Assembly (NCBI GenBank): GCA_046497485.1 | Contig: JAWOFP010000045.1 | Span: 1 to 59,095, forward strand | Reading direction: 5' to 3' | Origin: Candidatus Nanohaloarchaea archaeon | GTDB taxonomy: Archaea; Nanohalarchaeota; Nanosalinia; Nanosalinales; Nanosalinaceae | Length of the DNA: 59,095 nucleotides | Made by a program: the position numbers and the translations under genes | Shown: in pieces, positions 1 to 58,819 of the stretch | How positions within the stretch are numbered: the first letter of the stretch is position 1 | How the letters are laid out: every line of letters starts with the position of its first letter | Notes under the pieces: model-generated | What the model was told of the DNA's origin: nothing | The model's input: the letters and a program-made list of their open reading frames with translations, nothing else | Database searches by the model: none

Positions 1-222
1 AGCGCTAATATTTCCGGTGAGAAGACGAGTTACTCGGTTGATGATATTTCGGAAGAGTTACTGGATAAAGTTGATTTTGTGTTGGATAAAGGACGGCTTC
101 CTAGAGGTCCGACTTCTACTATCGTTGAAATTAGGGACGGTGAGGTTTTTATTCACAGAGATGGACCTATTTCACAGGAAGAGGTAGAGAAAGTTTTAGA
201 TGATAGAGGTATTCACAGCTGA
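1..222 (+). CDS. C-terminal fragment of a YrdC/Sua5-family L-threonylcarbamoyladenylate synthase (5' end lies outside the window)
   Basis: Frame 1 is open from base 1 to the TGA at 220-222. The translation SANISGEKTS...LPRGPTSTIVEIRDGEVFIHRDGPIS carries the SANxSG and (T)STIV motifs typical of YrdC/Sua5. Confidence 0.7.
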   Translation, partial: SANISGEKTSYSVDDISEELLDKVDFVLDKGRLPRGPTSTIVEIRDGEVFIHRDGPISQEEVEKVLDDRGIHS

Positions 223-1876
223 CCTGGCATTAATCATAGTCACAGCCACTTTGCTCGCCTTTTTAGCTAGAAAAACTGGGCAGCCAACGATAATTGCTTA
301 CATCGCGACAGGCCTTGTACTGGGGCCTGTAATGTTTGACTTGGTTGTGGAGTCAGAGATGACGCATCTAATGTCGGAGCTAGGCCTAGGATTTCTGCTG
401 TTTTTACTGGGTATAGAGATGAATTTGAAGGAATTAGAAGATCTTCTCAAACCTATCGCAAATATTGCAATATGGCAGACAGTGTTACAGACCGGGTTTG
501 CGTTTCTGATTCCGCTCCTTCTAGGATTCAGTTTCCTGGAGACATTGGTAATTGCATTATGTACTGTATTCGGCGCAACACCTGTAATCGTCAAACTTCT
601 GACAGATAAAGATGAGATTTCTTCTCTACCTGGAAGGATTGATGTTGGAGTGCTGATTCTGCAGGATATCTACCTAATCATAATTCTTGCACTGTTTTCC
701 GCAGATTCGTTGACAAGCGCATCACAGATCGGGTTTCAGCTTGTGAAGATTTTCTCATTAATAGGCCTTATAGGAGGTTTCTCGTATCTTTCAGCACAGT
801 ACTTCCTTCCGAAACTTTTCAAGAGGATAGCTGATAATAAGCATGCGTTCTTTGTACACGGAATAGCATGGGCGTTCCTGTTTATCTCCCTGGCTCTAGC
901 GCTCGACCTTTCTATAGAGGTTGGAGCATTTCTAGCAGGCCTAGGATTAGGTCAGATGCCTTATAGAAATGAGTTGAAGGAGCGTGTCAGGCCTTTGACA
1001 GACTTCTTTATAGTTATCTTCTTCTCAAGCATTGCCTTGACTTTGGAAACCTCAAATCTCTATGCTTACTGGCTTGAAGCAGTCGTGGCTTCAGTCCTGC
1101 TAATGATCGGGAATTTCATGATAATGTTCTACCTTATCAACAGGCTAGGCTTCGACGCAGAGACCAGTTTCCTCGGCTCAATCAACATGACACAGGTATC
1201 GGAGTTCTCACTTGTAGTAGGAGGTCTCGCAGTGACACAAGGCTACATTGGTAATGATATTTTGGGATACCTTTCTCTGATGGCGTTGATGACGATGACG
1301 GCCTCAACTTACCTGATAAACTACAATAGAGAAATCTTCGAGAAAGTAGAGCATTTACTTGAGAGATTTGACTCTGAATCAAACTATGAGGCCTCAAAGC
1401 TTGAGAATCACGCAGTCGTTGTAGGCTACGACAATCTTGCGATGAACGCAGTATCTGAACTTGAGAAGTTCTATGAGGATGTAGTAGTAGTCGATAGAAA
1501 CCCTGAAAATGTGGAAGAGCTTGAAAGCTCGGAGCATGAATATATCTATGGCGATATTACTCATGGCGAGGTCAGGAAAAACTCAGGCCTAAAGAGAGCT
1601 GACTTCGTGATATCGTTCGTACCTGATATGAATATTAATAAACAGATTTTGAGGTCCTCAAAGGAAGACGCAACTAGGATTTTGAAAGCACGGAACTTTG
1701 AAGAGGCCTCAGAGCTTTATGAACTGGGCGCTCATTATGTAATCATCAAAAATACTTTGTCGGGCGACAAACTTGGAGAACAGCTCAAGCTTTACTTTGA
1801 GGACCGTGATCTTTTCCTTGAAGAGGTAAAAGAAGAGCATAAAAAGATCCAGTGGAGGAACGACCGATGGAAATAA
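200..1876 (+). CDS. Kef-type monovalent cation:proton antiporter (CPA2) with a C-terminal TrkA-N/RCK domain
   Basis: 558 aa. The N-terminal ~380 aa are polytopic and hydrophobic (GLVLGP, ELGLGFLLFLLGIEM). The tail has a Rossmann-like VVVGYDNL...VVVDRNPE segment. Confidence 0.8.
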   Translation: MIEVFTADLALIIVTATLLAFLARKTGQPTIIAYIATGLVLGPVMFDLVVESEMTHLMSELGLGFLLFLLGIEMNLKELEDLLKPIANIAIWQTVLQTGFAFLIPLLLGFSFLETLVIALCTVFGATPVIVKLLTDKDEISSLPGRIDVGVLILQDIYLIIILALFSADSLTSASQIGFQLVKIFSLIGLIGGFSYLSAQYFLPKLFKRIADNKHAFFVHGIAWAFLFISLALALDLSIEVGAFLAGLGLGQMPYRNELKERVRPLTDFFIVIFFSSIALTLETSNLYAYWLEAVVASVLLMIGNFMIMFYLINRLGFDAETSFLGSINMTQVSEFSLVVGGLAVTQGYIGNDILGYLSLMALMTMTASTYLINYNREIFEKVEHLLERFDSESNYEASKLENHAVVVGYDNLAMNAVSELEKFYEDVVVVDRNPENVEELESSEHEYIYGDITHGEVRKNSGLKRADFVISFVPDMNINKQILRSSKEDATRILKARNFEEASELYELGAHYVIIKNTLSGDKLGEQLKLYFEDRDLFLEEVKEEHKKIQWRNDRWK

Positions 1877-3474
1877 TCTCAACGCTTACAGCCATATTCG
1901 TAGCAGCATCAGTTACACTGCTGATATTCGACAAGTTCAATCATCCCGCGATTCCCGCTTATATTATAGCAGGCCTAACAGTTGGATACTTCATAGATTC
2001 GCAGTCGTTAATGAATCTTGCACAGATAGGGATCGCGTTCCTAGTATTCATATTTGGGCTGAAATTTGATCCAAAAAGGCTGAAAGATGAAGCAAGAACA
2101 AGTCTGAACGCGACAACAGTCCAGATACTATTGACGAGCTTTATAGCCTACTCGGCCTCAGTATTTATAGGTTACAGCTCCTTCGACTCTGCAGTCTTCG
2201 CAATAGCAGCAGGCCTCAGCAGCTCCCTTATCGGATTAGAGCTTGCGGAAAAAGAGATACAGTTCGAACTACTTCACGGCAGAATCGCAGAATCAATGCA
2301 TATGATACAGGATATTATAGGTTTGCTAATTCTCGGAGTGATATTTGCATCCGGCATCGAAAACGCAGTATACTCTCTTGGAATAACAGTTGGGATGCTG
2401 GCCTTCGCATTAGTATTGAGAGAGTTCGCTTTCGACTTTATAGCAAAACAGGCAGATTTCAGCTCTGAACTAATGATGCTCTCAGGCCTCACAGCATTAG
2501 TAGGATTTATCTCGGTGACACAGTTCTTCGAAATCCCAATGGCTATAGGAGCATTCGCGGCAGGCCTCACGGCTGCAAAATTCCCTCACAACATGGAATT
2601 ACTGGATACAATGGGCTCGATCAAGGATTTCTTCTCAGCCGTGTTTTTCGTAGCGCTCGGAGCACTTGTAACATTCCCTACTCTAGGAGTCCTCAGCCTC
2701 GCAGCATTACTAGTATTCTTCACTTCCTTCGTAAATCCGTACGCATCTTACAAAGCACTTAAAATTCAAGGATATGATTCCAGAACTTCAATGCTTGCAT
2801 CATTCCCATTGGATCAAATAAGTGAGATAACATTAATTATAGCGATTCAGGCCTCAATCTTAGGGCTTTTATCTAATACGATGTTCCAGGCAGTTTTACT
2901 GGCAGGTGTTATGTCCATGATGATCTCATCATACACCAAAAAGTATGAAGAAGAGCTCTACCAAATGTTGAAGCCTGAAAAGAAAGCTGAAGATCCGTTA
3001 GACATTGAAGATCATGTAATCATCGTAGGCCACCATATTCAAGGCAAAAGAATACTAGAACATCTTCAGGAAGAAGGTGTCAAGGTCGCAGTCATCGACA
3101 ACGACCCAGAAAAAGTCTCAGAAACTGAAGAAAAAGGAGTTCCCGCAGTTTACGGCGATATCATGGATCAGGAAACCTGGATAGAAGCTAACTACACCGA
3201 AGCACAGCTAATAGTTTCAACTGTACCCTCCAAAAAAGTCTCGGAGAAAATACTGGACCTCGAAAAACCTGAAGACAAGATCGTAAGAGCTTCAGACCCA
3301 TGGGAAGCAGTAGAACACATGGAGAACGGTGCAATACATGCAGTAGTACCGGATATTGCAGCCTCAGAGCTCTTGATAGATCACATTGAAGGGGTCATGC
3401 ACCACGAAAACTACCGTGAAGAATTGCGGAGGAAAAGTCTTTTAGAAGTAAGAGAGTACCTTGAGAGCCGTTGA
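1852..3474 (+). CDS. Second CPA2 antiporter with an RCK domain, a tandem paralog of the previous gene (the start may be the ATG at 1867)
   Basis: 540 aa with the same architecture as the previous gene. The tail motifs are HVIIVGHHIQG...VAVIDNDPE. It overlaps the upstream stop. Confidence 0.8.
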   Translation: MEERPMEIISTLTAIFVAASVTLLIFDKFNHPAIPAYIIAGLTVGYFIDSQSLMNLAQIGIAFLVFIFGLKFDPKRLKDEARTSLNATTVQILLTSFIAYSASVFIGYSSFDSAVFAIAAGLSSSLIGLELAEKEIQFELLHGRIAESMHMIQDIIGLLILGVIFASGIENAVYSLGITVGMLAFALVLREFAFDFIAKQADFSSELMMLSGLTALVGFISVTQFFEIPMAIGAFAAGLTAAKFPHNMELLDTMGSIKDFFSAVFFVALGALVTFPTLGVLSLAALLVFFTSFVNPYASYKALKIQGYDSRTSMLASFPLDQISEITLIIAIQASILGLLSNTMFQAVLLAGVMSMMISSYTKKYEEELYQMLKPEKKAEDPLDIEDHVIIVGHHIQGKRILEHLQEEGVKVAVIDNDPEKVSETEEKGVPAVYGDIMDQETWIEANYTEAQLIVSTVPSKKVSEKILDLEKPEDKIVRASDPWEAVEHMENGAIHAVVPDIAASELLIDHIEGVMHHENYREELRRKSLLEVREYLESR

Positions 3475-4737: not shown

Positions 4738-5301
4738 ATGAACATTAAGGGCGCAGAAGCAGAAGTCGAAATAAAAAAAGATGAAGTAATCAAAACGAGG
4801 CCTCAGAAAAAATATCGGCATTCAGAACTTGATAACAGAATCAGGAAACAGAGAACTCAGACAGAGTTTTCCTCAATGCAGAAGGCGCGTAGAAACAATG
4901 TAAATGTCCCGAAAGTGGAGAAAGACTCAGACTATATATTGAAAATGGAGAAGATCGATGGAAAGACTCTGGAAGAAGATTTCAAAGTTGAGAAAATGGT
5001 TGAAGTTGGAGAAAATATTCAGAAGCTTCACGAAGCAGGCCTGATCCACGGCGACCTAACGACCAAAAACATTATGTCGAACGGCGAAGTAACCCTAATC
5101 GACTTCGGGCTTTCAGAAGACTCTAAAGGCGTGGAGGATAGAGCAGTCGATCTGCATCTTCTAAAACAGATCCTGGAGAGCTCGCATCCTGAACATTTCG
5201 AGGAGGCCTGGGAAAACTTCCTAGAAAATTACAGGCCTGAATTTAGAGAAAAAGTCCTGGAAAGACTACAAGAAGTAGAGGAAAGGGGCCGTTACAAGTG
5301 A
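4738..5301 (+). CDS. bud32: Bud32/PRPK-type small kinase (KEOPS complex subunit)
   Basis: 187 aa with GAEAEV, KKYRHSELDNRIRKQRTQTE, IHGDLTTKNIM and LIDFGLS, which are typical Bud32 motifs. Confidence 0.8.
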   Translation: MNIKGAEAEVEIKKDEVIKTRPQKKYRHSELDNRIRKQRTQTEFSSMQKARRNNVNVPKVEKDSDYILKMEKIDGKTLEEDFKVEKMVEVGENIQKLHEAGLIHGDLTTKNIMSNGEVTLIDFGLSEDSKGVEDRAVDLHLLKQILESSHPEHFEEAWENFLENYRPEFREKVLERLQEVEERGRYK

Positions 5302-9965: not shown

Positions 9966-10050
9966 AAAACCCTTATTTTTCTCTAATTTAGTTTCACTAT
10001 TTGATTTTACTTAATTTCCTAAGTTTTCAGGCCTTTTCTAAGGTTCTGTG

Positions 10051-10088: not shown

Positions 10089-10162
10089 GGGCCCGTAGCT
10101 CAGTCTGGCAGAGCACCAGGCTCTTAACCTGGTAGTCGCGGGTTCAAATCCCGTCGGGCCCA
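10089..10162 (+). tRNA. tRNA-Lys (anticodon CUU)
   Basis: The cloverleaf folds by eye. The acceptor is GGGCCCG/CGGGCCC. The anticodon stem is CCAGG/CCTGG with loop CTCTTAA. The T arm is GCGGG-TTCAAAT-CCCGT. There is no intron and no encoded CCA. Confidence 0.9.
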
Positions 10163-10178: not shown

Positions 10179-10241
10179 TCCATCACTAATTGAACAGATT
10201 GACCAAAGGAAACAAAACTAGGCCTTCACAAATACTTGATT

Positions 10242-14639: not shown

Positions 14640-14972
14640 ATGAGCTCAATTAGGCATAGTAAATCAGATAGAGTCAGGACACCCGGAAAAATAAATTCAG
14701 AAACGTGGAAAACTGAGAAAAATCTAACAGATATAGCAGCAATCCTACTACTAGAACCCGATTTTCCTGATAGATTAACATGGAACAAAGCTGACAACTG
14801 GATAGAATCAAACTATTCCGGCGAGACTACAGTATTCGCTCCAGAGAAAGAAAGATATCAAGTATCAGTGACTGAAAGATCATACGGACGGCATTTCGTG
14901 GACTTCATCTATTTTGAACATCCAAACGAAGAGATTAACTCAAAAATATCGGATTATAGAGAAAAACTTTAA
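14640..14972 (+). CDS. Hypothetical protein (110 aa)
   Basis: ORF only. I recognised no motif. Confidence 0.4.
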   Translation: MSSIRHSKSDRVRTPGKINSETWKTEKNLTDIAAILLLEPDFPDRLTWNKADNWIESNYSGETTVFAPEKERYQVSVTERSYGRHFVDFIYFEHPNEEINSKISDYREKL

Positions 14973-15751
14973 TCCGCTGAATAATCGGCATCAAAATCAG
15001 ATAGGCCTTTCTGACTATTATCGACAGCCTCGTAGCTCGGGATCACATCTTCCATATCTACATTTACAAATTCTAAGCCTCTCTCCTCTAGGTATTCAAG
15101 CACTTTATCAGTCATCTTTGGAGCCACCAAGATTCCTCTAATATCTCCGTTAAATTCGTCCTCTATCTCATCCACATACCGTTGTAACTGTAGAACAGTG
15201 TTGTAGTCAGGATTTCTCTTGACTTCTATCACCACATAGTCATCGCTCTCATCACGGGCGAATACATCGATGAATCCTGCTGGAGTCTCTCTTTCCCTCT
15301 CAACTACTTTCAGGCCTTCCTCAATCATCTCAGGATCCTCCTCAATCGACTCATGGATATCGACTTCGTGCCCTGCAATCTTCAACTCGGACTTATCCAC
15401 TAATTGATCTACTGTAATCAATGAAATCTCATCGAAGAAAACCTCAACCTTCTCATCAGGACTGAATCTTGAAGCAGTCAAAACCAAGGCCTCATCCCGC
15501 ACCTCGACATCAAAAGAATCAACTGTCGGCTGCCAATTCTTCGGCTGATAATTATCAGGCCCATGCACCAATAAAGCGGAATCCTGCTTCTTGATCAACA
15601 GACGCTCGCCTCGGTCCAGTTTAGAAGAAGCCCTACCAGTATAATTAACAGTACATAGCCCGTTCACCTGGACAGTAAACTCTCGGGAAAGATACTCCTT
15701 CAAAATCTCAGAGGCCTCATCAAAATCAGGGTTTTGAATCAGTTCTTTCAT
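14969..15751 (-). CDS. nucS: Endonuclease NucS/EndoMS (mismatch-specific, RecB-like nuclease fold)
   Basis: 260 aa. The N-terminal domain has YTGRASSKLDRGERLLIKKQDSALLVHGP...PKNWQP. The C-terminal domain has GFIDVFARDESDDYVVIEVKR...QLQRYV. Confidence 0.8.
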   Translation of the reverse strand: MKELIQNPDFDEASEILKEYLSREFTVQVNGLCTVNYTGRASSKLDRGERLLIKKQDSALLVHGPDNYQPKNWQPTVDSFDVEVRDEALVLTASRFSPDEKVEVFFDEISLITVDQLVDKSELKIAGHEVDIHESIEEDPEMIEEGLKVVERERETPAGFIDVFARDESDDYVVIEVKRNPDYNTVLQLQRYVDEIEDEFNGDIRGILVAPKMTDKVLEYLEERGLEFVNVDMEDVIPSYEAVDNSQKGLSDFDADYSAD

Positions 15752-30193: not shown

Positions 30194-30239
30194 TAAGAGT
30201 TTACTGTTGATTATACGCTGTATAGGTGAAAATTCAAAA

Positions 30240-31505: not shown

Positions 31506-31576
31506 AACAACTAAAGGCCTGATTTAGGCCTCACATATTTTCATTTCATTTTATTCTGAATACAGGTGGTTAAAGC

Positions 31577-31828: not shown

Positions 31829-31864
31829 AGGCCTTTATAAGAATTAAGTTTAGAGTTATTTAGT

Positions 31865-39688: not shown

Positions 39689-39699
39689 AATATAGAATA

Positions 39700-42462: not shown

Positions 42463-42468
42463 TTATTA

Positions 42469-43956
42469 ATGAAAAAGATAGCCATTTTCTTTTCCTTAAT
42501 TATTTTTACAGTTTCTTCTTCAGCAATTATGCTGGATCAGGGTTGGAATACTATATCAGTTAATTCAGAGTTTGATATCTCAGATGCAATAGAGAAAAAT
42601 AATAACTGTGAGTTTGAGAGATATCAAGGAGAGTACATCTGGAAATATGATAATAGACAGGACGATTGGACTCATCCAGATACACTGCAGCCTGAAGACG
42701 GATTCTATCTATATACCGACAATAACTGTGAACTGGAAGTTGACCAGAGTACCGAAAACAATATTGACAATTTAGAAATGGATTCAGGATGGAACATGAT
42801 AGGCGCTTCACACGACCAACTTTCGAGAGTTCAATCAAGCTGCGATATTAACCCTCATTTAAACAATGGAGACTTCAGTTTTCTCCTCAACGGAGAATGG
42901 TACCATCCTCTAATATCGGCATCGGAGATGGAAAACAGAGGTTACTGGCTGAATCTTAATGAAGGGGACTGCCAAGTTAACTTTGATGAAGAGCTCGATG
43001 AACCTGAAGAAGAACCTATTGAAGACAGCTACCTTGAGTTCAATGATGCAGAAATAGTATCGGAAACAGTTTCAGCAGATGGTGAAAACCTAGATGTGGA
43101 TTTCAGCTTTGACAGAGATTCAGCCACTGAAAACGATGTTGAGGCTAAAGTAGGTCTTCACATAGATGAGAGTAGTTCTCCGGTGAAGACTTTTGAGTTA
43201 TCTGATAAGAGAGATCAGACAGTTTCAGCTAACTGGAAAAATATATGGGAAGAAGTTGGAGAAAGCAGTGGAGATTCTTCTGCCCAGCTTGTTCTTCAAA
43301 AGAAGACTGAAGGTGAGTTTAGGTGGAACAGAGATAGTATAGATGTTGGAGAGTTTACAGTTGAGAGATGTAGCAGTTTCAATCCAGAGACCAGTAATAA
43401 CTGGGAGCTGACCTATGAGCCAGATAATGAGGAAAGGTGCCTAGATAAGGTGAAAGCAGGAGAAAGCTCCGATGGAAGCCAAGGACTATTGATAAGATCC
43501 AACCAGGGCGGAGTAGCAGGATCAGTTGAACTTAGAAAAGTATATCGTGATACTGAGGGAACTGAGAGACTGACAATTGATCTTACCAAGCTAAAAGATT
43601 CAAGCCAGATAAGAACTTCGAATATCGAGATCAGACATTTCAAAGGTGGAGAAGGAGACGGGTGGAATACGGTTCTAGAAGACGAGGTATATAATCTGGA
43701 CCCACAGTCAGTTAAACTGGACTTCAGTAAGGCCTTGAGCGGAACTCATCCATATAATATCGTGGAAGTCACTGTTGAGAATAATAGATATAGTTCCAGT
43801 ATGGATCCCCTGGAGATAGAAGGAGATCTACAGTTTGAGAGGTATCCTGAAGATGGGTCAGGGACATGTCAGCCAGGTCAGACTTGGTGTGGAGATGGAA
43901 GCGGCGGAGGAACTTGTATTGATGATGAAAGTTACAGTCCAGGCCTCTGCTACTAA
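42469..43956 (+). CDS. Secreted hypothetical protein (495 aa) with a duplicated N-terminal GWN module and a Cys-rich C-terminus
   Basis: It has a Sec-type signal (IFFSLIIFTVSSSA). There are two similar ~85-aa modules (LDQGWNTISVN..C..W..GFYLY..C and MDSGWNMIGAS..C..W..GYWLN..C). The C-terminus is GTCQPGQTWCGDGSGGGTC. Confidence 0.6.
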   Translation: MKKIAIFFSLIIFTVSSSAIMLDQGWNTISVNSEFDISDAIEKNNNCEFERYQGEYIWKYDNRQDDWTHPDTLQPEDGFYLYTDNNCELEVDQSTENNIDNLEMDSGWNMIGASHDQLSRVQSSCDINPHLNNGDFSFLLNGEWYHPLISASEMENRGYWLNLNEGDCQVNFDEELDEPEEEPIEDSYLEFNDAEIVSETVSADGENLDVDFSFDRDSATENDVEAKVGLHIDESSSPVKTFELSDKRDQTVSANWKNIWEEVGESSGDSSAQLVLQKKTEGEFRWNRDSIDVGEFTVERCSSFNPETSNNWELTYEPDNEERCLDKVKAGESSDGSQGLLIRSNQGGVAGSVELRKVYRDTEGTERLTIDLTKLKDSSQIRTSNIEIRHFKGGEGDGWNTVLEDEVYNLDPQSVKLDFSKALSGTHPYNIVEVTVENNRYSSSMDPLEIEGDLQFERYPEDGSGTCQPGQTWCGDGSGGGTCIDDESYSPGLCY

Positions 43957-43996: not shown

Positions 43997-45721
43997 TTAC
44001 CATTCTCTTACGAGAATGACTGCAGTGATTACGAGGCCTGCGAGGATTGCTGCTATTCCTCTTGAAATGTTGTCTGCTTCGGTTATTGCCTGATATAGGC
44101 CTGAAGCGCTGCTTGAGAATCTTCCTACGAAGCGGCCTTCATTGCTTCTGATGGCTTCTTCTACTTCTTCGTTTATCACTAGGTCGACTTTCTGTGTTGC
44201 TCTGACTTCGTTTCCTTCTGCTACTGCTGTGATTTCTACTTCTCCTTTCTTCTCGAAAGGTACTCCTGCATACATGTAAACTGTCTCTGTCTGTCCAGGA
44301 CCTACTGTGACTTCTTCAGGCCTAATAGATATCCATTCAGGGCCTTGGTGTGTTAGTCTGTAAGTGTTCTCTCTTGTTCCAGGGTTTTCCACGTTGATCT
44401 CGTATATGGTGGACATGTTTTCTCCTGCTGAAGCAATTTCAGGCACAACATCTAGACCTATATCCCAGCAGTTTTCGACTGTTAAAGTTGTCTCATCCGA
44501 GTTTGTTGGCTCGTCAAATGTTGTAGCCTGAGATTCTAGATTTACTGTGTGTTCTCCGTCATCCATTCCTGAACTATTCACTGTTAGGCCGACTTCCTCC
44601 GAATCTCCAGCATCTAAAGTTAGCTGGTCTTCTTCTAAGGCTCCTATGTTGCTTGAGAGATTGTATGTCTCTTCTGCTTCTCCATCATTCTCTATCTCTG
44701 CTTCGTACTCTGCAGATTCATCTCTGCAAACTGTTGTAGACTCATCAAATGTAACGTCGGAACTCATTCCATTATATGAATTGACTGATACAGTCTGTGA
44801 GGATTCAGAGTTTCCTTCTGCATTTACTGTTATATCCTGTTCTCCGACATCCTCTGGTGTGAAGCTAAGAGTGGCAGTCTCTGTGGAGTCTGCATCTACA
44901 TCTAGAACAGTCTCTGATAATTCTCCTCTGTCTGTGGTTAATGCAAATTCATCGTCTCTGGTTCCATCATTTCTTACTGTCACATCGAACTGTGACTCGG
45001 TAAATGCTGCTGCATCCTGTGTTTCTGGACTGATAGATACCTCAGAGTCGAAACAGTTTTCTGAATTGAATTGCACATTCATTGTTTCTGTTGCATAGCT
45101 AGTTGTAGACGATGCTTTGACGTTGAAGTTTTCCTCGGCGACTTCTTCGGAAGAGGCAGTTAATACTACTGTAGTAGATTCTCCCTGATCAAGGTTTACT
45201 CTATCCCTATCCAGTTCTCCATATTCAGTTGTCAATGCGAATTCCTCCTGCTGGAGTCCTTCATTAGTGACATCTATCTCATAGTTTGCGGTTTCTCCTC
45301 TACATACAACTGCCGAGTCAGAACCTGATACAGATACTTCGTGGTCCTTAATTACGTTTACACGGCCCGAAGTTGAGTAAGTTTGTCCATCTGCACTAGA
45401 ATCTGCGTCAATCCTGAAACTGTAGGTTCCTGCGTCTCTATCAACTCTAGGATTGAACCATACATTGAATGTCTCGGTCTCCCCTGATTCAAGCTCGATC
45501 TGAGTCGGAGCTACAGAAATTTCTCCAGGATAATTGTGCTGGATCTCATAGGTATCCTTTACAGGCCCGACATTCTGGATGTCGACCTCGTAAGATGTGA
45601 AGGAGTTAATCTCAGTGCTTGATTCCTCCGGGAAAATTGTTAATTCTGCTTGGCTCGCCGTTGCGAGGCCTAATAGTATAGTTGTTGTTATTAGTAAAGT
45701 TGCAAGTTTGGAAACCTTCAT
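43997..45721 (-). CDS. Cell-surface repeat protein (~574 aa): signal peptide, about five CARDB/S-layer-like beta-sandwich repeats, and a C-terminal transmembrane anchor
   Basis: The likely start is MKVSKLATLLITTTILLGLATASQA (ATG at 45721). Repeat units have the form EFALTTEYGELDRDRVNLDQGESTTVVL, EFALTTDRGELSETVLDVDADSTETATL and TYNLSSNIGALEEDQLTLDAGDSEEVGL. The C-terminal anchor is AAILAGLVITAVILV. Confidence 0.7.
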   Translation of the reverse strand: MKVSKLATLLITTTILLGLATASQAELTIFPEESSTEINSFTSYEVDIQNVGPVKDTYEIQHNYPGEISVAPTQIELESGETETFNVWFNPRVDRDAGTYSFRIDADSSADGQTYSTSGRVNVIKDHEVSVSGSDSAVVCRGETANYEIDVTNEGLQQEEFALTTEYGELDRDRVNLDQGESTTVVLTASSEEVAEENFNVKASSTTSYATETMNVQFNSENCFDSEVSISPETQDAAAFTESQFDVTVRNDGTRDDEFALTTDRGELSETVLDVDADSTETATLSFTPEDVGEQDITVNAEGNSESSQTVSVNSYNGMSSDVTFDESTTVCRDESAEYEAEIENDGEAEETYNLSSNIGALEEDQLTLDAGDSEEVGLTVNSSGMDDGEHTVNLESQATTFDEPTNSDETTLTVENCWDIGLDVVPEIASAGENMSTIYEINVENPGTRENTYRLTHQGPEWISIRPEEVTVGPGQTETVYMYAGVPFEKKGEVEITAVAEGNEVRATQKVDLVINEEVEEAIRSNEGRFVGRFSSSASGLYQAITEADNISRGIAAILAGLVITAVILVREW

Positions 45722-45820
45722 TGTTTGGTGTGTCACCTATACATGATTACACCGACAAAATTTTAAATAAAGGCAGGGTAGAATTAGTTACTCTTAAGTA
45801 AAATAAAGAAAAAGAAAGGC

Positions 45821-48800
45821 CTATCTGTAACGAAGCCACATCATGAAACGGTCCAGACGAGAAGGTTCTCGATCAGTTCCCCCTGAACTTAGATCGATAT
45901 CCTCGGTGTAAACCGTTCCGTCTTCAGACTCGACTCTCAGAGTTCCTGTAAACTCGCCTTCTTCCTTTGGAGTGAAGTAGAGGTACTCTGTCTTTCTCTC
46001 ACCACTATCCAAATGAACCTGTTTCCTACTCTGAGCCGTCCAGCTATCTGGAAGGCCTTCCAGGCTGATTTCATAATTCCTGAACTCTCTCTGATTGTTA
46101 TAGAGCTGGACTCTAACCATCCCGCTTCCAGATCTGACAGATGCTATCTGGTCAGGGAAGTTTCTGACCTCTGAATCCATCTCCATAACTTCAACTGAGG
46201 TAGACTTGGTAGATGACTGTCCTCTAGCGTAACCAACTACTTCATAGTCATAGTTGCCAGGCTTGGTTCTTCTATCGAAGCATACTTCTCCACGACCATA
46301 CTTTGAATCAACCTCTTCGCCATCTTCCTTAAGCACGACCAATGGACCTGAACTCTGTGACTCTACCTCTGCACATACCTCATATGTGTCACCCTCAAAT
46401 ACACGATCAGGGCTTGAAGAAGCGCTTACTACAGATACTGTCGGCAGCACATCTACCCTAGTATTTGCCTCCATCCCTGAAGCCTCAGCCGTCAAAGTCT
46501 GCTCACCAATACTACTTGGTTCCACATATAGTTCGTAGTATCCACTTGGATCTGTAGTCGCAGATCCCAGACTTCTATAACTATTACTTGAACCTATATT
46601 GACCTGAGTTCCTCTATCAACATCATCAACATAACCCGAGACTCTGACAGATTCTCCTACTCTAATCTGTGTAGGCCTAGCGCTTACTGAGATATCAGAG
46701 TCATCTTGATCTCCACAGTCTCTGACCTGGACGGTTTTTTCCCTTGAGCCGTCTCCAGTTGTGAAGCTGACTCTCTCATTCCCTGAACCTTCGACATTGA
46801 TGAACTCTATTGTTCTTGTAAAGCTTTCATCATCATCCAAGCTATAGCTTCTATCGATTTCATTCTCTAAGCCTGACGCCGACAAAGTAAATGTTCTATC
46901 TCTATCACCAGTATTCTCTATATCAAGTCTTGCGGTTACATCCTCGCCTCTGCAGACTGAGTTAGGCATCCTGATATCCTGAATCCTTATCTCTCCTTGT
47001 CCAATATCTCTATCTCTCGAATCCAGTTCTACCTCAATATTTCTATCTCTGTCAAGAGTAACAGTTCTGCTCTCTGATCTGTAATCATCAGCAGACACAA
47101 AGACTGAGTAAACCGATTCCTCTAAATTGAAGCCTGCTTCTCCATCACTATCAGTAGTTCTAGTTCTCCCATCTACCGATACTCTCGCATCCTCTATCTC
47201 ATCATCTGTCTCAGAATCCACAACGTCTACATCAAGATTATAGAACTCTGGATCGGCTTCTTCCGACCTGACATGGACTACTCGAGTCCTGTCATCAGTC
47301 CTACCTTGAGAGTCCTCTACCTCAAGATTGACTCTGTAAAAACCAGAGTCATCAAATTCATGAGTTACAGTTCTACCTGAAGCCGTCGAACCATCGTCAA
47401 ACTCCCAGTCATAGCTCTCAATATCTCCGCTCGACAGGCCTCCATTGAACTGCACGGTCTGATCTTCTAAAGGCCTTTCAGGACTGAAGCTGAAGTCTGC
47501 CTCAACCCCATCAACTTCGCTCAATGTCAATGAGATAGTTCTATCTCTATCAAGTTCTACATTATTTCTTACTCTGGTGCTGTAACCTGGTTTGGAAGCA
47601 ACTACATCATAGCTTCCTTCTTCCAAGTTCTCGATTGTTGCTACACCGTTTGATCTTGTGAATGCTGTCTCGCCCCCCACATTTACTTCTGCATTCTCTA
47701 AAGACGAGCCTGAACTGCTTAGAACAACAACATCTAGGTCAAATTCCTCTTCCGTATCCTCAGGCTCATCTTCCTCCTCCAGACATAAATTCTGAGGAGC
47801 GCTTCTGCTATCTGCAAGGTCTCCGCCAGACCTCAGTCTAGCGCTGAGACTGTAACACTCGCCAGCTTCCAGGCCTTCAGACAACAACTGATTATAAGAT
47901 CTATCGCGTTCCAAATCTCTCTGACTATCTCCAGGCACCGTTCTACTATCGGAACCGATCCTGTTTCCTCCGGCTCTCCAGTCAACCTGTACTGACGCAG
48001 AGCTACCGCCCTCATTTTCTACAGTAGATCTGAGCTCGGTTGATTCGCCCGGCCCTACACTATATCTTGAGGTAGAGACCGATTTGAACTCAACATCTGC
48101 ATCTTCAACAGATTCATCAGATTCTCTTACATTGATGTATGTAAAGTCTTCGTCATTTTCGGTTTCGACATCCGCCCTTCTATATCCAGAATCTCCGTCT
48201 TCAGTCTGCCATTTGAGCGTGCCGGTTTCGGACTCATCCGAATCAAGAGATACCCAGTCTCTGTCTCTTCTTTCCCCTCTAACATATAGTTCAACATACT
48301 GCGAGTCTTTACCCCCTCTATTCTCCACTTCGTAGTCAACTAAAGCAGTCTCCTCTTCATCTACAGGACTATTCGAATCGATATTTGTTATTCTGAATTC
48401 GGAGTCTTCTTCAGGCTCTTCTGGTTCATCCTCATCTTTCAGTACTTCAACTATTTCAGTCGCGTCATCGTTTTCAGATTGGACTTTGATGCTTCTATAT
48501 CCAGAGTCCCCATCTTCTGTATCCCATTCTAATTTTCCAGATTCAGATTCTCCAGGTTCAAGGTCTATATTAGAGTCTCTGTCCTGTCTCTGACCTCTAG
48601 CCCTAAGATCAATATCTTGAGAATCCTCTTGATCCCCTGTATTCGTAACAGTATAATCCACATATACAGATTCTCCTTCAGTAACTTTATCATCGAAATC
48701 ATCTATCTCTACATCAAAGTTAGCAGGATCATTGCTCTGGTCGCTTCCCTTGATATTTACAAATTTTGTCGCTTCATCATTTTCAGAACTTATCTTGATA

Positions 48801-50080
48801 TTCCTATAACCTGAATCTCCTTCTTCAGTATCCCATTCTAATGTGCCGGATTCAGATTCTCCAGGTTCCAAGTATGAAACATATTCTCTATCTCTTCGCT
48901 CATTTCTGGCATCCAATTCTACATACTGTGAATCTCTCTTGTCGCCAGTATTTGTGACAGTGAAATCTACTTCCAAAGTTTCTCCTTCAGTCACTGATTC
49001 AGCCCGATCTATCTCTACATCAAAGTTAGCAGGATCTTCGGGTTCATCTTCTTCTAAAAGCGTTACTGTCTGGCCTGAATTTCTTTCATCACCGCTTACT
49101 TCTTCCTCTGCAGATACATCATATTGCTTTCCAATTTCTAGGCCTGACTCTTGGAGCTCAGAGTAGTCTCTGTTCAAGGTAACTGTCCTAGAGTCTCCAG
49201 CATCAATATTCACATACTTTGAGCCTACCTTGATATCGTCTGCATACCAGTTGATATCAGAATACCCATCGGCAGATCCTTCATTCTCTATTTCGGCCTC
49301 GAAAGTTGTCGATTGGCCTTCCTCTATTTCTTCATCTTTGATTGATACATCGTTAATTACGAAATCAGACTCTGCTTCTTCCACATTAAAGCTTTCTTCA
49401 CGAGAGATGAGTTTTCCATCCGAGGCCTCTATCTCTGCCACGATTTTATTTGCAGTGGCTCCTTCAACCGGTTCAAACTCTCCTTCAGCCGAACATCTTT
49501 CTCTCTCAGTTCCCAGCCTCGGATTCCAATAACAATCACTCGACCCTATCTCCTCCTGTTTAAAACCATTTTTATAGTATTCATAGTAGATATCTAGGTT
49601 TCTACTCCATAAATTGCCTCTAGAATCATAGGCTTCAGCATTTACTGTATATGTTTCTCCTAGCTTCGCTGGGTCTGGAAGCTCCGAGAAAGTCATACTT
49701 GTAACTCGTGATCCTACATCATCTTCTTCAGTAATATCTATAAATTCTGTTCTTGAAGTTTCTAGTCCGTCCTCATCTTCAGCAGTTGCAGTAACAGATC
49801 TGTACCCCTCATTATCTATCGAAAAATTCCACTCTCTTTCACAGTATACCGGCTCACCACAGGATTTTTCCTGGATACCTTCGCCCCAGTTAAGACCCAT
49901 TATCTCTACTTCCTTGTCATCTACTTTAGAGCGAATAGTTACTGTTATTTCCTCCCCCTGTTCGGCCTGCTCAGGCATGTCAAATTCTGTTACCTCTATC
50001 TGATCCTGAGCTACCACAGGACTGGCAAATACTGCCAAAACCAGCATCGCAATTATTAGTATTTTATTTTTCATGAGCAA
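45821..50080 (-). CDS. Giant secreted multi-domain surface protein (1419 aa) with CARDB-like repeats, two carboxypeptidase-regulatory-like domains and a PKD domain
   Basis: It has a signal peptide (ILIIAMLVLAVFASPVVAQ). The PKD-like segment is FSFSPERPLEDQTVQFNGG...YDWEFDDGSTASGRTVTHEFDDSGFYRVNLEVED (about 47267-47503). The CarboxypepD_reg-like segments are AEVNVGG..TRSNGVATIENLEEGSYDVVASKPGY and ARVSVDGRTRTTDSDGEAGFNLEESVYSVFVSADDY. Confidence 0.75.
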   Translation of the reverse strand: MLMKNKILIIAMLVLAVFASPVVAQDQIEVTEFDMPEQAEQGEEITVTIRSKVDDKEVEIMGLNWGEGIQEKSCGEPVYCEREWNFSIDNEGYRSVTATAEDEDGLETSRTEFIDITEEDDVGSRVTSMTFSELPDPAKLGETYTVNAEAYDSRGNLWSRNLDIYYEYYKNGFKQEEIGSSDCYWNPRLGTERERCSAEGEFEPVEGATANKIVAEIEASDGKLISREESFNVEEAESDFVINDVSIKDEEIEEGQSTTFEAEIENEGSADGYSDINWYADDIKVGSKYVNIDAGDSRTVTLNRDYSELQESGLEIGKQYDVSAEEEVSGDERNSGQTVTLLEEDEPEDPANFDVEIDRAESVTEGETLEVDFTVTNTGDKRDSQYVELDARNERRDREYVSYLEPGESESGTLEWDTEEGDSGYRNIKISSENDEATKFVNIKGSDQSNDPANFDVEIDDFDDKVTEGESVYVDYTVTNTGDQEDSQDIDLRARGQRQDRDSNIDLEPGESESGKLEWDTEDGDSGYRSIKVQSENDDATEIVEVLKDEDEPEEPEEDSEFRITNIDSNSPVDEEETALVDYEVENRGGKDSQYVELYVRGERRDRDWVSLDSDESETGTLKWQTEDGDSGYRRADVETENDEDFTYINVRESDESVEDADVEFKSVSTSRYSVGPGESTELRSTVENEGGSSASVQVDWRAGGNRIGSDSRTVPGDSQRDLERDRSYNQLLSEGLEAGECYSLSARLRSGGDLADSRSAPQNLCLEEEDEPEDTEEEFDLDVVVLSSSGSSLENAEVNVGGETAFTRSNGVATIENLEEGSYDVVASKPGYSTRVRNNVELDRDRTISLTLSEVDGVEADFSFSPERPLEDQTVQFNGGLSSGDIESYDWEFDDGSTASGRTVTHEFDDSGFYRVNLEVEDSQGRTDDRTRVVHVRSEEADPEFYNLDVDVVDSETDDEIEDARVSVDGRTRTTDSDGEAGFNLEESVYSVFVSADDYRSESRTVTLDRDRNIEVELDSRDRDIGQGEIRIQDIRMPNSVCRGEDVTARLDIENTGDRDRTFTLSASGLENEIDRSYSLDDDESFTRTIEFINVEGSGNERVSFTTGDGSREKTVQVRDCGDQDDSDISVSARPTQIRVGESVRVSGYVDDVDRGTQVNIGSSNSYRSLGSATTDPSGYYELYVEPSSIGEQTLTAEASGMEANTRVDVLPTVSVVSASSSPDRVFEGDTYEVCAEVESQSSGPLVVLKEDGEEVDSKYGRGEVCFDRRTKPGNYDYEVVGYARGQSSTKSTSVEVMEMDSEVRNFPDQIASVRSGSGMVRVQLYNNQREFRNYEISLEGLPDSWTAQSRKQVHLDSGERKTEYLYFTPKEEGEFTGTLRVESEDGTVYTEDIDLSSGGTDREPSRLDRFMMWLRYR
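48116..49036 (-). repeat. Three tandem ~100-codon intragenic repeats within the 1419-aa gene
   Basis: The units are DPANFDVEIDRAESVTEGE...SGYRNIKISSENDEAT, DPANFDVEIDDFDDKVTEGE...SGYRSIKVQSENDDAT and SEFRITNIDSNSPVDEE...SGYRRADVETENDEDF. The DNA string tctctacatcaaagttagcaggatc is identical at about 48706-48730 and 49012-49036. Confidence 0.8.
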
Positions 50081-53114: not shown

Positions 53115-54092
53115 TCACAAAACACTGATATCAAAACAGTAACGATCCTCTGAAGGCGACTTATAACCGCACCTAACCCTATTCATTACCTCATATCCCA
53201 GGCATTTATCCGCCATAATTTCATCTATTTTTTCTTCTACAGGCCTGAAATCCCCGTCCTCTACAAATGAATATAGATGAACTATTCCATTCTCTTTCAA
53301 AGAATTTACAGCAAGATCCAGAAAATTAATAGCTGATTCCGGAAGCGGCATAATAACTCTATCAAATTCTTCATCCAAATCCGGAACTATCTTCTTAACA
53401 TCTCCACAGTAGGCCTCAATCTTATCTTCAAAATTATTCAACTCAATATTTTCCTTCAGATACTTACAGGCCTCAGGATTTTTCTCTACTGCAACTACTT
53501 TCTCAGCCTTTTCAGCGCATAATACTGCGAAAGGCCCGACACCTGCAAACATTACAAGAACTTTCTCTCCTTCTTCAATTTGATCTGCTACTCTCTTTCT
53601 CTCTGTCGCAAATCTTTCACTATAGTAGGCCTTTGTCGGATCCACCCTGAATTGGCAATTATGTTCTTTGTGAGTCGTCTCTGTCTCTTCTCCATAAAGC
53701 CCCTCATATTCTCCGACGCGGAACTCTCCGGAAAGGCCTTCTGTCTTCAAGAGAATAGTTTTGACATCGTGATGCGCCAATATACCCTCAACAGCTTTAT
53801 CTCTATTCCGTCCGGAGAGATCATTGATTATTGCGATATCTCCGATTATCTCAAAGCTCGGCAAATCATATTCTTTCTCTTCCTCAACTGTATAGGCATC
53901 TTCTACATCTAAGCCTTCATCGACAAAAATCTTATCCTTAGAAAAATCGATATCTTCTTCAGAATATTTTTCAGATGAGTAAATCCCTAATTCAAGCTCA
54001 ACTTCTGGCTTCTTGGCGACACCGTCTTCTATCTCAAATCCTTCCCTCGATAGAATCTCCGCGACTTTTTCCTCAAGTTTTTCCTGTTTCAT
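53115..54092 (-). CDS. Trm5/Taw2-type (Met-10+ like) SAM-dependent tRNA methyltransferase
   Basis: 325 aa with VLVMFAGVGPFAV, a class-I methyltransferase core, and DRVIMPLP. Confidence 0.75.
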   Translation of the reverse strand: MKQEKLEEKVAEILSREGFEIEDGVAKKPEVELELGIYSSEKYSEEDIDFSKDKIFVDEGLDVEDAYTVEEEKEYDLPSFEIIGDIAIINDLSGRNRDKAVEGILAHHDVKTILLKTEGLSGEFRVGEYEGLYGEETETTHKEHNCQFRVDPTKAYYSERFATERKRVADQIEEGEKVLVMFAGVGPFAVLCAEKAEKVVAVEKNPEACKYLKENIELNNFEDKIEAYCGDVKKIVPDLDEEFDRVIMPLPESAINFLDLAVNSLKENGIVHLYSFVEDGDFRPVEEKIDEIMADKCLGYEVMNRVRCGYKSPSEDRYCFDISVL

Positions 54093-54163
54093 ATCATGTT
54101 ATTTTTAGGCTCACAGTTTTGTATCCAAAAGATTTTTGTATGTTTACACGTAAACTTACTTGT

Positions 54164-54379
54164 ATGGCTACGAAGACTATCACTATCAAAGAAGAGGCCT
54201 ATAACAAGTTAAAGGCCTTAAAAGGAGAGAAAAGTTTTTCAGACCTGATCATAGATATGACGGAAGAGAAAGATGTAGATCTATCTAAGAGCGCCGGGCT
54301 CTGGAGCGATGTAGATGAAGAAAAAATTGAGGAGAAACGTAAGGAGTTCAGAAGCGACTTTGAGGAGAAGTTTTCATGA
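54164..54379 (+). CDS. vapB: VapB-type antitoxin (71 aa)
   Basis: MATKTITIKEEAYNKLKALKGEKSFSDLI matches the archaeal small antitoxin pattern. It overlaps the PIN-domain gene by 4 nt. The track ORF starts further upstream, at 53975. Confidence 0.65.
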   Translation: MATKTITIKEEAYNKLKALKGEKSFSDLIIDMTEEKDVDLSKSAGLWSDVDEEKIEEKRKEFRSDFEEKFS

Positions 54380-54753
54380 AGTATGCCTTAGATTCAAGCG
54401 CCATAATAGATTATCTAAAGAATGAAACAGCTATTATAGAGTTTCTAGAAACATTACAAGATTCAAATATTGTTGTGCCGCTAATTGCAAAAGCCGAGGT
54501 TAAATATGTAAACAGAGAAATAGGCAGTTTTGAAAAATTAGAAACAGTTAATTTAGACGATCAAGATCTCCAAGAAGCAATGAGTATGCTTACCTATCTA
54601 GAGGAAAAAGGCGAGAGAATCAATATGGCAGATATTTTGATAGCAGCAAATGCAATCAAAGAAAACTCGGTATTAATCACTGGAGACAAGGACTTTGAGA
54701 AACTAGAAGACTATGAAGGATTCAGGTACAAAACAGTAATCCCCAACCAATAA
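54376..54753 (+). CDS. vapC: PIN-domain ribonuclease toxin VapC
   Basis: 125 aa with an N-terminal YALDSSAIIDY segment (catalytic Asp) and a C-terminal DILIAANAI...LITGDKDF. Confidence 0.75.
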   Translation: MKYALDSSAIIDYLKNETAIIEFLETLQDSNIVVPLIAKAEVKYVNREIGSFEKLETVNLDDQDLQEAMSMLTYLEEKGERINMADILIAANAIKENSVLITGDKDFEKLEDYEGFRYKTVIPNQ

Positions 54754-58262: not shown

Positions 58263-58302
58263 CCCCTTTACAATAAAAACAGAGGAGTCACAAACATAAC
58301 TT

Positions 58303-58819
58303 ATGAAGGCCTGGAAATCCCTAGCCCTACTAACTGCATATATTTTTCTCGCCGTAACTGTATCCGCCCAAGGCCTTGGAGGAGCGGAAATGACGGTAGA
58401 GGAAAGCCTCACTACTTTTGTGACGGAAGTTTTGGGTTTTCCTGTAGCTGATGTATCTGAGGTTATTCTCTTTGTAGTTGGGCCTATTTTTGCGTTCTAC
58501 TTTTTCTTGACTAACATGATGACTATGGCCTTCGAGAACTTCGAGGACAGAATAGGGCGAGATGAATGGGATAAAAAGGAAGAATTACCGACCAATCTCA
58601 AACTTTTCTCACTAGTTACCGCATTCATAACAGTTGTTACTATAGGAAGAGTTGCTCCAGGCCTAATAATGGTTTTCGGAGCTCTCGCACTAATCCTCGG
58701 AATCTTGATGATGACAGGCCTACTGACTAGAGATGAAAACGGAAATAATGGCGGAGGAAGTGAAGAAGACGCTGGAGATACCGGAGGCGGAGCCGACAAT
58801 AACGGTAATGGCGCAACAA
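58303..58819 (+). CDS. Signal-peptide membrane protein; the 3' end is undefined because the frame stays open through the composition junction to the window end
   Basis: It is not in the ORF track because it has no stop codon. The ATG at 58303 gives MKAWKSLALLTAYIFLAVTVSAQG, then hydrophobic segments, then NGNNGGGSEEDAGDTGGGADNNGNG. Confidence 0.45.

Follow-up and report, generated by a model that had tools for sequence, protein, structure and literature searches.

What makes a single six-base palindrome the most frequent hexamer in a stretch of archaeal DNA? The question is raised by a 59,095-bp contig of Candidatus (Ca.) Nanohaloarchaea archaeon (JAWOFP010000045.1, assembly GCA_046497485.1), which we refer to as the window, meaning this whole stretch, and in which the hexamer AGGCCT recurs both within and between genes. 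Nanohaloarchaea are DPANN ectosymbionts of haloarchaea. The site of a StuI-type restriction–modification (R-M) system would be expected to be avoided or neutral; AGGCCT is instead enriched 15-19-fold. We argue that AGGCCT in the genome of the window looks like an archaeal counterpart of the highly iterated palindromes (HIPs) of cyanobacteria, and we weigh which force might have produced it.

Abundance of AGGCCT

An exact string search of the whole window located 190 copies of AGGCCT (Table 1), which ranks first among all 4,096 hexamers, followed by GAAGAA with 123 copies. At a G+C content of 42.6%, base composition alone (zero-order) predicts 9.9 copies, a first-order Markov model 12.7 and a second-order model 29.7. 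The observed-to-expected ratio (O/E) is 19 for the zero-order and 15 for the first-order model, and the next palindromic hexamer reaches 1.8. The maximal-order Markov expectation of 173 was discarded as a null because its component words are largely the motif itself; the counts of AGGCC (214), GGCCT (213) and GGCC (263) come mostly from AGGCCT, which makes this value uninformative. A first-pass annotation, made from the sequence alone, had estimated about 190 copies by hand, which is the exact count, and about 10 expected copies, which agrees with the zero-order value, although its G+C content of about 40% was too low.

The hexamer accounts for most of the GGCC in the window, as had also been proposed: 190 of the 263 GGCC tetramers (72%) lie inside AGGCCT, and GGCC outside AGGCCT is at background (O/E 0.9 in the window and 0.9-1.1 in the window and its close relatives). 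The 18 one-off variants of AGGCCT occur 5-25 times each, which is about background, and the outer-position variants add up to 47 copies vs ~50 expected. The 10 bases on each side of the 190 sites carry no conserved signal and have background composition. Over the whole 59 kb, AGGCCT is present at a density of 3.2 per kb with a mean spacing of 309 bp.

Reading frames, non-coding DNA and permitted positions

Phase counts, synonymous shuffling and saturation are based on a 51-gene model, while a refined gene model was used for strand and non-coding densities. In the null model, synonymous codons were shuffled within each gene 500 times, such that the protein and the codon usage were kept. The 167 genic copies comprise 28 in the AGG-CCT phase, 41 in xAG-GCC-Txx and 98 in xxA-GGC-CTx, compared with 21.6±4.1 after shuffling (maximum 36 in 500), a 7.7-fold excess (z=35) to which each codon phase contributes with a 6-8.6-fold enrichment of its own. 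This null is conservative because 98 of the 302 GGC codons lie only inside AGGCCT. In non-coding DNA, 15 copies are found in 3,645 bp vs 0.45 expected, corresponding to an enrichment of about 30-fold. Genes on the + strand and on the - strand carry the motif at nearly identical densities (3.16 and 3.09 per kb, respectively), and about 175 of the 190 copies are inside genes.

A position is regarded as permitted if the encoded peptide allows AGGCCT by synonymous spelling. Arg-Pro is spelled AGGCCT in 28 of 39 cases in the window genes, [Lys/Glu/Gln]-Ala-[Phe/Leu/Ser/Tyr/Cys/Trp] in 41 of 70 and x-Gly-Leu in 98 of 155. Hence, 59-72% of the permitted positions are realized depending on the context and 63% overall, and this fraction is statistically homogeneous across all 51 genes. 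Even spacing is not supported, as the sites are no more regular than a random subset of permitted positions (P=0.39). With a uniform realized fraction and no regular spacing, the density of AGGCCT is therefore set by opportunity and not by particular places or intervals. The pressure reaches the protein sequences as well: Gly-Leu is inflated, with 175 dipeptides in the window genes vs 112 expected.

The first-pass annotation had placed AGGCCT in all three codon phases, on both strands and in spacers, and had taken this as a constraint on DNA rather than on amino acids or codons. The shuffle, strand and non-coding counts agree with the former statement, and the shuffle, the saturation, the non-coding DNA and the orthologues described below agree with the latter. 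It had named an excess of no more than two-fold over a codon shuffle, or confinement to one phase, as outcomes that would speak against a DNA-level signal; we find 7.7-fold and all three phases. Most of its example coordinates are accurate, except that the Arg-Pro site lies at 4798-4803 and not at 4799-4804, and that no site is present at 29321, the nearby one being at 29311.

The longest AGGCCT-free stretch contains the EF-1alpha gene (Table 1), in which 0 of 3 permitted positions are used (P=0.05, not significant after multiple testing). Although not significant, this may reflect strong codon selection at high expression.

Conservation of sites in orthologous genes

A codon alignment of 12 orthologues allows a comparison of the window, its relative L081 and Nanohaloarchaea archaeon SG9, all rich in AGGCCT, with two poor genomes. 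Where the peptide is conserved (x-Gly-Leu, Arg-Pro, Glu-Ala-Tyr etc.), the rich genomes have AGGCCT and the poor ones AGGACT, AGGTCT, AGGGCT or AGACCA. Out of 30 positions permissive in both poor genomes, 19 are realized in the window, 23 in L081 and 19 in SG9 vs 3 and 2 in the poor genomes. Permissive peptide contexts are themselves more numerous in the rich genomes (68-70 vs 50-52), and 17 of the 48 window sites are found at places where neither poor relative has a permissive peptide. The amino-acid changes at such sites include Glu-Glu-Trp to Glu-Ala-Trp and Leu-Asp-Leu to Leu/Thr-Gly-Leu. Thus, the force fixes amino-acid changes too.

The window shares 42 of its 48 sites with L081 even though only 58.7% of third codon positions are identical, and 25 of 48 with SG9 at a third-position identity of 47%, which is near saturation. 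AGGCCT sites thus appear to have been kept in place after neutral synonymous positions were randomized. The sharing itself may reflect sites that were inherited and then maintained, or saturation reached independently, each genome being ~60-80% saturated; the association of sites at jointly permitted positions between window and SG9 (odds ratio 7.6, P=0.049) is too weak to separate ancestry from saturation. Between L081 and L082, which are 99.56% identical, no AGGCCT site differs, and 70 of the 71 differing alignment columns are within the first 413 bp, at a contig end, which makes this pair uninformative about recent polymorphism.

Distribution among nanohaloarchaea

Among the matches listed, the nearest relatives of the window by RpoA' carry the names Nanohalobium, Nanosalina, Nanohalovita, Nanohalococcus and Nanohaloarchaea archaeon SG9. 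We compared the syntenic RNA-polymerase loci of the relatives, with relatedness given as RpoA' identity to the window. Rich loci are found in assemblies with a 91%-identical RpoA' (77 AGGCCT in 21 kb), in a relative at 88% (25 in 9.3 kb), in SG9 at 83% (81 in 22 kb) and in the cultivated Ca. Nanohalovita haloferacivicina BNXNv at 80% (46 in 22.5 kb). Relatives at 85% and 83% are poor, with 8 copies in 22 kb and 1 in 8 kb, respectively, as are Ca. Nanosalina J07AB43, two further lineages, and the 77% and 63% RpoA' groups. A lineage at 86% is weakly enriched (13 in 22 kb). Genomes classed as rich include SG9 (JGI Ga0136257_100001, 1.125 Mb), BNXNv (CP107255.1) and the metagenome-assembled genome GCA_900492375.1, and those classed as poor include J07AB43 (GCA_000220375.1), the organism of KOPF15-1 scaffold_14 and Ca. 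Nanohalococcus occultus.

The same picture emerges from observed and synonymous-shuffle counts in the same nine orthologous genes of ten genomes. AGGCCT was observed 34 times in the window (3.4 by shuffle), 38 times in L081 (3.6), 31 times in SG9 (4.9), 18 times in Nanohalovita (3.1) and 8 times in the weakly enriched lineage (1.9), compared with 1-6 observed vs 0.9-2.6 by shuffle in five poor genomes. Around RpoA' in 144 archaeal loci among the matches listed, the top palindromic hexamer reaches an O/E of 6.4 at most (median 2.6), apart from the rich nanohaloarchaeal loci, which stand out against this background at an O/E of 15-18. On a neighbor-joining RpoA' tree, rich and poor lineages interleave, which points to three or more gains of AGGCCT or to many losses. 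At least three lineages of the phylum, separated from one another, carry the motif. The weakly enriched lineage (L287) gives no support for a recent loss, as its sequences at the sites of the window are no nearer to AGGCCT than those of the poor lineages.

Some deviations were seen in the poor loci. In L292 (ENA ERZ28435101 k141_107599), AGGCCT occurs once vs 3.7 expected, and GGCC has an O/E of ~0.6 in this locus and likewise in the poor lineage L291 (JGI Ga0443338_000004). This scarcity may be ordinary restriction-site avoidance and is not significant on ~22 kb. AGTACT, which has the AG..CT frame around a GTAC core, is mildly over-represented in the poor loci L084 and L087 of the group with 83-85% RpoA' identity (15 copies in 22 kb and 8 in 8 kb, O/E 3-6), with 7 copies in the nine genes of this group vs 2.8±1.5 by synonymous shuffle, and could be a weak alternative palindrome or chance. 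A scan of viral contigs for three closely spaced AGGCCT gave at least 120 matches, mostly chance or tandem repeats, and none was recognizably nanohaloarchaeal among the matches listed. Two related viral contigs from IMG/VR with 36% G+C, L168 (3300029432_000018) and L249 (3300045988_144701), have dispersed AGGCCT clusters with 13 copies in 3.6 kb and 8 in 5 kb, respectively, and identical local spacing of 14 and 26 bp; they are probably unrelated to nanohaloarchaea.

Broader specificity in Ca. Nanohalovita

The locus of Ca. Nanohalovita BNXNv (CP107255.1:836826-859300, L288) deviates from the window in the breadth of the signal. GGCC is present in 163 copies in these 22.5 kb, a 3.8-fold excess, and GGCC outside AGGCCT is still three-fold enriched (117 vs 38.5). 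AGGCCB (53 copies) and VGGCCT (27) are in excess beside the 46 AGGCCT. The driver in Nanohalovita seems to recognize a core of GGCC or AGGCC and to prefer it between A...T flanks, whereas that in the window seems to need the full hexamer. Such a difference in breadth between lineages would be given by differing enzyme specificities.

Comparison with known iterated motifs

AGGCCT shows defining features of a HIP: it is dense and in extreme excess, it occurs in every reading frame as well as outside genes, its positions are conserved and its distribution is sporadic. The cyanobacterial HIP1 (GCGATCGC) is a short G+C-rich palindrome that is 15- to 300-fold over-represented and occurs roughly once per kb, in coding DNA in all frames as well as in non-coding DNA (PMC5861425, PMC4390886). 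It is spread by point substitutions and not by transposition, its positions are conserved between genomes, and it is absent or replaced in some lineages, while its function has remained unknown after decades (PMC5861425, PMC4390886). Its core, CGATCG, is a site for a methyltransferase, and its one-off variants deviate mainly in the outermost bases (PMC4390886); the pattern in Ca. Nanohalovita is reminiscent of this. AGGCCT resembles HIP1 as an over-represented palindrome that is found in all frames and in non-coding DNA, positionally conserved and patchy among lineages.

Despite these similarities, AGGCCT is a hexamer of another sequence and HIP1 an octamer, and AGGCCT is denser (3.2 per kb vs 0.5-2.5 for HIP1). 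The archaeal carriers of AGGCCT are DPANN ectosymbionts with a genome size of ~1 Mb; HIP1, in contrast, tends to be lost from symbiotic cyanobacteria. In the window, outer-position one-off variants are not enriched, although they are in Ca. Nanohalovita. Moreover, nanohaloarchaea have NucS/EndoMS in place of the MutS/MutL context assumed by Elhai's model, and the methyltransferase associated with AGGCCT is a candidate only. HIP1 also reportedly shows a long-range periodicity of 10-90 kb, a finding attributed to Xu et al. in 2018.

Together with HIP1, the alternate HIPs are the closest precedents. These are GGCGCC in Calothrix PCC 7103 and also rCCGGy and GCsGC, each of which occurs together with a cognate methyltransferase gene (PMC4390886). 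GGCGCC is likewise a hexameric palindrome, with an O/E of ~15-20 and a density like that of HIP1, and alternate HIPs turn up sporadically, in individual lineages and not throughout clades; the motif corresponds to the site that a type II methyltransferase recognizes or to a subset of that site (PMC4390886). In contrast, the cognate methyltransferase was found in each cyanobacterial case, whereas there is only a candidate for AGGCCT, and AGGCCT is shared by at least three lineages that lie apart within one phylum.

Also comparable are methylated palindromes raised by repair toward the methylatable sequence, as in Dcm/Vsr (CCWGG in E. coli) and Mig.Mth with M.MthTI (GGCC in Methanothermobacter). 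The latter pair is archaeal and has the GGCC core in common with AGGCCT. The effect in these systems is less than about two-fold and comes with depletion of the T-containing precursors, in contrast to a 15-19-fold excess of AGGCCT without depletion. Uptake sequences, i.e., the DNA uptake sequence (DUS) of Neisseria and the uptake signal sequence (USS) of Pasteurellaceae, are present in thousands of copies at about one per kb, in genes and in all frames, and accumulate by drive and not through a benefit of each site. They differ from AGGCCT, a six-base palindrome with background flanks, in being 9-12 bp long and non-palindromic, with an extended flanking consensus and a known competence machinery.

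Furthermore, over-represented R-M sites are rare and mild in a large survey, with ratios of ~1.4-1.5, as for CCGG in Helicobacter pylori, and have no accepted explanation (PMC4687349). CCGG is similar to AGGCCT in that a type II recognition site is enriched and not avoided, and differs in that its ratio is only ~1.4-1.5. This survey bears out the statement of the first-pass annotation that enrichment is opposite to the usual avoidance of type II sites (PMC4687349).

Full-text searches returned no paper that links AGGCCT to nanohaloarchaea and no published AGGCCT enrichment in archaea, and the motif is not mentioned in the SG9 genome preprint, in the Nanohalococcus and Nanohalovita papers or in an archaeal R-M survey. 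The first-pass annotation knew of no description of this signal. For the exact motif this seems to be right, but HIP1 and the alternate HIPs such as GGCGCC are a close precedent (PMC4390886).

Possible drivers of AGGCCT enrichment

The force behind AGGCCT is directional and acts on DNA, independent of frame, strand, gene and flanks. It operates in certain nanohaloarchaeal lineages but not in their sister lineages. We tentatively place first a horizontally acquired methyltransferase of GGCC or AGGCCT specificity that would create a fixation bias for its own sites. A strong directional force on the whole chromosome would push convertible sequences to AGGCCT and then hold them. The on/off switch would be a horizontally acquired sequence-specific DNA enzyme, of which the likeliest kind might be a cytosine methyltransferase recognizing AGGCCT, either as an orphan or within an R-M system. 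The enzyme of Ca. Nanohalovita would target the GGCC core and favor sites flanked by A...T. Either repair or gene conversion could be biased to the methylatable allele, which would give a fixation bias without a benefit per site, or dense methylation itself could be useful to the cell. A methyltransferase is favored because the on/off pattern, the identity of the palindrome as a type II restriction site and the varying breadth fit a mobile sequence-specific enzyme, and because each sporadic alternate HIP in cyanobacteria coincides with a cognate methyltransferase (PMC4390886).

Several points weigh against this proposal. In the window, one-off variants stay at about background, which a simple one-step repair ratchet would not obviously predict. 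Orphan methyltransferases, Dam and CcrM for example, are not generally known to enrich their sites. Conserved positions do not tell biased repair apart from selection for some other function. Homologues of DNA methyltransferases, restriction enzymes, Vsr and Mig were not detected in the 59 kb of the window with Pfam, NCBIfam and PADLOC, and no gene for these enzymes was found in the ~22 kb loci of the rich relatives. The only mismatch enzyme seen in the window is NucS/EndoMS (Table 1), which is also present in poor relatives. There is no obvious MutS/MutL system in the nanohaloarchaeal DNA examined, and with NucS/EndoMS in its stead the coupling to repair would therefore differ from the cyanobacterial MutH-like model. 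Finally, the R-M system of BNXNv is named as type III Mod/Res only in its published analysis, which reports no type II cytosine methyltransferase (PMC10266531).

It is possible, if somewhat doubtful, that selection maintains AGGCCT because an abundant dimeric DNA-binding protein, specific to the lineage and unrelated to methylation, binds there and requires sites at high density. Such a protein could act in nucleoid or chromatin architecture, or in replication or segregation. A palindrome suits a symmetric dimer, site positions are conserved far beyond the neutral expectation, and the densities in coding and non-coding DNA are similar. For HIP1, conservation has been read as selection and a role in chromosome structure was proposed (PMC5861425). 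Random spacing and a uniform realized fraction, however, give no sign of selected placement, and sister lineages with the same proteins and habitat manage without the motif. The individual selection of several thousand sites in the ~1 Mb genome of an obligate symbiont would moreover demand very effective selection.

Rather unlikely in our judgment is a self-recognition signal, uptake-like or a Chi-like protection mark, that spreads by molecular drive. An ectosymbiont exchanging macromolecules with its host would then import or recombine AGGCCT-bearing DNA in preference to other DNA, or protect it from degradation. In its density and its occurrence in every frame, AGGCCT is similar to the uptake sequences of Neisseria and Pasteurellaceae, and uniform saturation without regular spacing suits drive. 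Nanohaloarchaeal giant surface proteins have VirB4/TraG-like ATPase domains, and the import and degradation of DNA for nucleotides as well as protein exchange with the host have been proposed (PMC6642349; PMC11001535). Yet a 6-bp palindrome discriminates only ~10-fold against host DNA, known uptake sequences are 9-12 bp long and asymmetric with a flanking consensus that AGGCCT lacks, and nothing in the window connects such a function to the motif. We consider it slightly less probable again that AGGCCT, probably via its modification, is a dense "self" mark that separates symbiont DNA from imported host DNA in a cell physically attached to its host. Such a mark could spare the own chromosome from nucleases that digest host DNA to obtain nucleotides, or could favor the uptake or recombination of conspecific DNA. 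If true, it would be an archaeal palindromic analogue of Chi and uptake sequences whose reader or writer enzyme was acquired repeatedly by horizontal transfer.

Very-short-patch repair was the precedent for enrichment that the first-pass annotation named. In this scheme, 5-methylcytosine in AGGCCT deaminates, and a Vsr- or Mig-type enzyme over-corrects near-cognate T:G to C:G. The principle is established for Dcm/Vsr at CCWGG in E. coli, with an archaeal analogue in Mig.Mth, which is encoded beside the GGCC methyltransferase M.MthTI on plasmid pFV1. At one-sided sites, the single change that most often distinguishes the window from its closest relative is a transition of the outer C, although the numbers are small. 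The data nevertheless make this driver improbable. The precursors AGGTCT (12 copies), AGACCT (25), AGGCTT (19) and AAGCCT (21) stand at or above background and are not depleted relative to the other variants (5-19), and the leftover x-Gly-Leu codons show no specific loss of GGT. Orthologous positions in poor relatives would mostly need transversions or several steps, and the requirement for the outer A and T is as strict as that for the core. Moreover, a 15-19-fold enrichment is far above known effects of very-short-patch repair, including that at CCWGG, and neither a Vsr nor a Mig gene turned up in the window.

An origin of the excess in codon usage, preferred dipeptides or base composition, which might be suspected from the predominance of xxA-GGC-CTx (98/167) and the common Gly-Leu dipeptide, has next to no probability and is ruled out by the synonymous shuffle (167 vs 21.6±4.1, every phase up 6-8.6-fold), the about 30-fold enrichment in non-coding DNA and the sister-lineage orthologues of the same proteins without excess; codon usage rather follows from the motif, with 98 of 302 GGC codons inside AGGCCT. 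A dispersed repeat or miniature mobile element that left these copies behind, or an artefact of assembly, would have only the high copy number in its favor and is equally implausible, ruled out by the lack of conservation past six bases and by in-frame sites in housekeeping genes at orthologous positions in independent assemblies (ENA, NCBI, JGI, Logan), with ~175 of 190 copies being genic, unlike repeats of the repetitive extragenic palindrome or miniature inverted-repeat type.

Significance

Cyanobacterial HIPs have been known for ~30 years without agreement on their origin and function, and the archaeal case shows that the phenomenon is not a cyanobacterial oddity. The AGGCCT signal is stronger per kb than HIP1 and occurs in genomes of ~1 Mb. 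As NucS/EndoMS and no obvious MutS/MutL is found in the DNA examined, the cyanobacterial repair model cannot apply unchanged. Closely related on and off lineages with the same proteins are a natural experiment, and the enzyme responsible should emerge when their gene contents are compared. Ca. Nanohalovita haloferacivicina BNXNv, which carries the signal, is available in co-culture, making methylation and binding directly testable. AGGCCT also shifts codon usage and amino-acid composition in the rich genomes (Gly-Leu excess), serves as a sharp compositional marker for binning nanohaloarchaeal contigs, and would cause StuI to cut rich genomes to fragments of ~300 bp.

Other features of the window

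The window encodes a split RpoB, RpoA', RpoA'', EF-2, EF-1alpha, ribosomal proteins, NucS/EndoMS and RadC (Table 1). The order NucS-RadC-RNA polymerase recurs in nearly all fetched nanohaloarchaeal loci, rich and poor, with RadC not called in L287. Six consecutive + strand open reading frames (ORFs) at 34955-43956 (379, 998, 307, 270, 345 and 495 aa) have no match in Pfam, NCBIfam or PADLOC; their AGGCCT density is normal, and they are therefore long-resident genes. The neighboring 1,419-aa and 579-aa proteins encoded at 43997-50080 are probably cell-surface or S-layer proteins with possible relevance for host attachment.

Table 1. AGGCCT sites and other features of the window (positions in bp)
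Feature	Position	Strand	Remark
AGGCCT starts 1-96	310, 382, 763, 937, 989, 1389, 1585, 1704, 1971, 2211, 2484, 2562, 2849, 3491, 3584, 4188, 4591, 4798, 5037, 5204, 5233, 5372, 5786, 5859, 5980, 6454, 6596, 6680, 6916, 7226, 7477, 7790, 8010, 8426, 8658, 9214, 9539, 9772, 10029, 10220, 10331, 10522, 10665, 10979, 11278, 11536, 11797, 12082, 12184, 12264, 12477, 12582, 12687, 12938, 13260, 13332, 13644, 13906, 14160, 14385, 15003, 15312, 15487, 15712, 15867, 16018, 16097, 16318, 16418, 17012, 17485, 17586, 18382, 18467, 18976, 19095, 19813, 20328, 20434, 20670, 21527, 21893, 22072, 22319, 22639, 22816, 23200, 23364, 24410, 24653, 24926, 25262, 25769, 25787, 25856, 26305		exact search
AGGCCT starts, remainder of 190	26878, 27053, 27674, 27816, 28416, 29311, 29531, 29627, 29824, 31515, 31526, 31829, 32140, 32843, 32867, 33698, 33909, 33951, 34164, 34248, 34417, 34504, 34987, 35751, 36141, 36295, 36513, 37362, 37440, 37588, 37756, 38145, 38455, 38637, 39123, 39285, 39577, 39679, 39882, 40113, 40403, 40717, 40760, 41025, 41507, 41756, 42258, 43730, 43941, 44034, 44097, 44318, 45666, 45817, 46053, 46673, 47436, 47471, 47871, 49140, 49423, 50597, 51513, 51744, 51983, 52016, 52082, 52233, 52827, 53241, 53411, 53468, 53627, 53734, 54195, 54213, 54771, 54836, 55041, 55194, 55346, 55545, 55651, 55770, 55941, 56733, 57640, 57685, 57827, 58024, 58307, 58371, 58659, 58716		first 310, last ends 58721
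AGG-CCT, Arg-Pro example	4798-4803	+	within kinase-like gene 4738-5301
Two non-coding AGGCCT	10029-10034 and 10220-10225	.	flank tRNA-Lys (10089-10162) on both sides
Three non-coding AGGCCT	31515, 31526, 31829 (31515-31834)	.	downstream of EF-1alpha gene and next small gene
Longest AGGCCT-free stretch	29830-31514	.	1,691 bp between starts; contains EF-1alpha gene 30207-31505
Two tandem paralogues	200-3474		each a Na+/H+ exchanger fused to a TrkA-N domain
NucS/EndoMS gene	14969-15751	-	mismatch endonuclease
RadC-like JAB gene	15831-16493	divergent from NucS/EndoMS	just upstream of RNA-polymerase operon
1,419-aa protein	within 43997-50080	-	CARDB, PKD, carboxypeptidase-regulatory-like and Ig-like domains
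579-aa protein	within 43997-50080	-	adjoins the 1,419-aa protein; weak sub-threshold Ig/fn3-like (fn3, MSP) matches
Small ORF	53975-54379		overlaps start of PIN-domain gene 54376-54753

The window also exhibits a strong strand asymmetry (A 18,448 vs T 15,486), with about two thirds of the coding DNA on the + strand. SG9 has the lowest mononucleotide strand symmetry among tabulated archaeal genomes (PMC6416199). The small ORF at 53975-54379 and the PIN-domain gene are likely a toxin-antitoxin pair, and this ORF has two AGGCCT only 18 bp apart (54195 and 54213).

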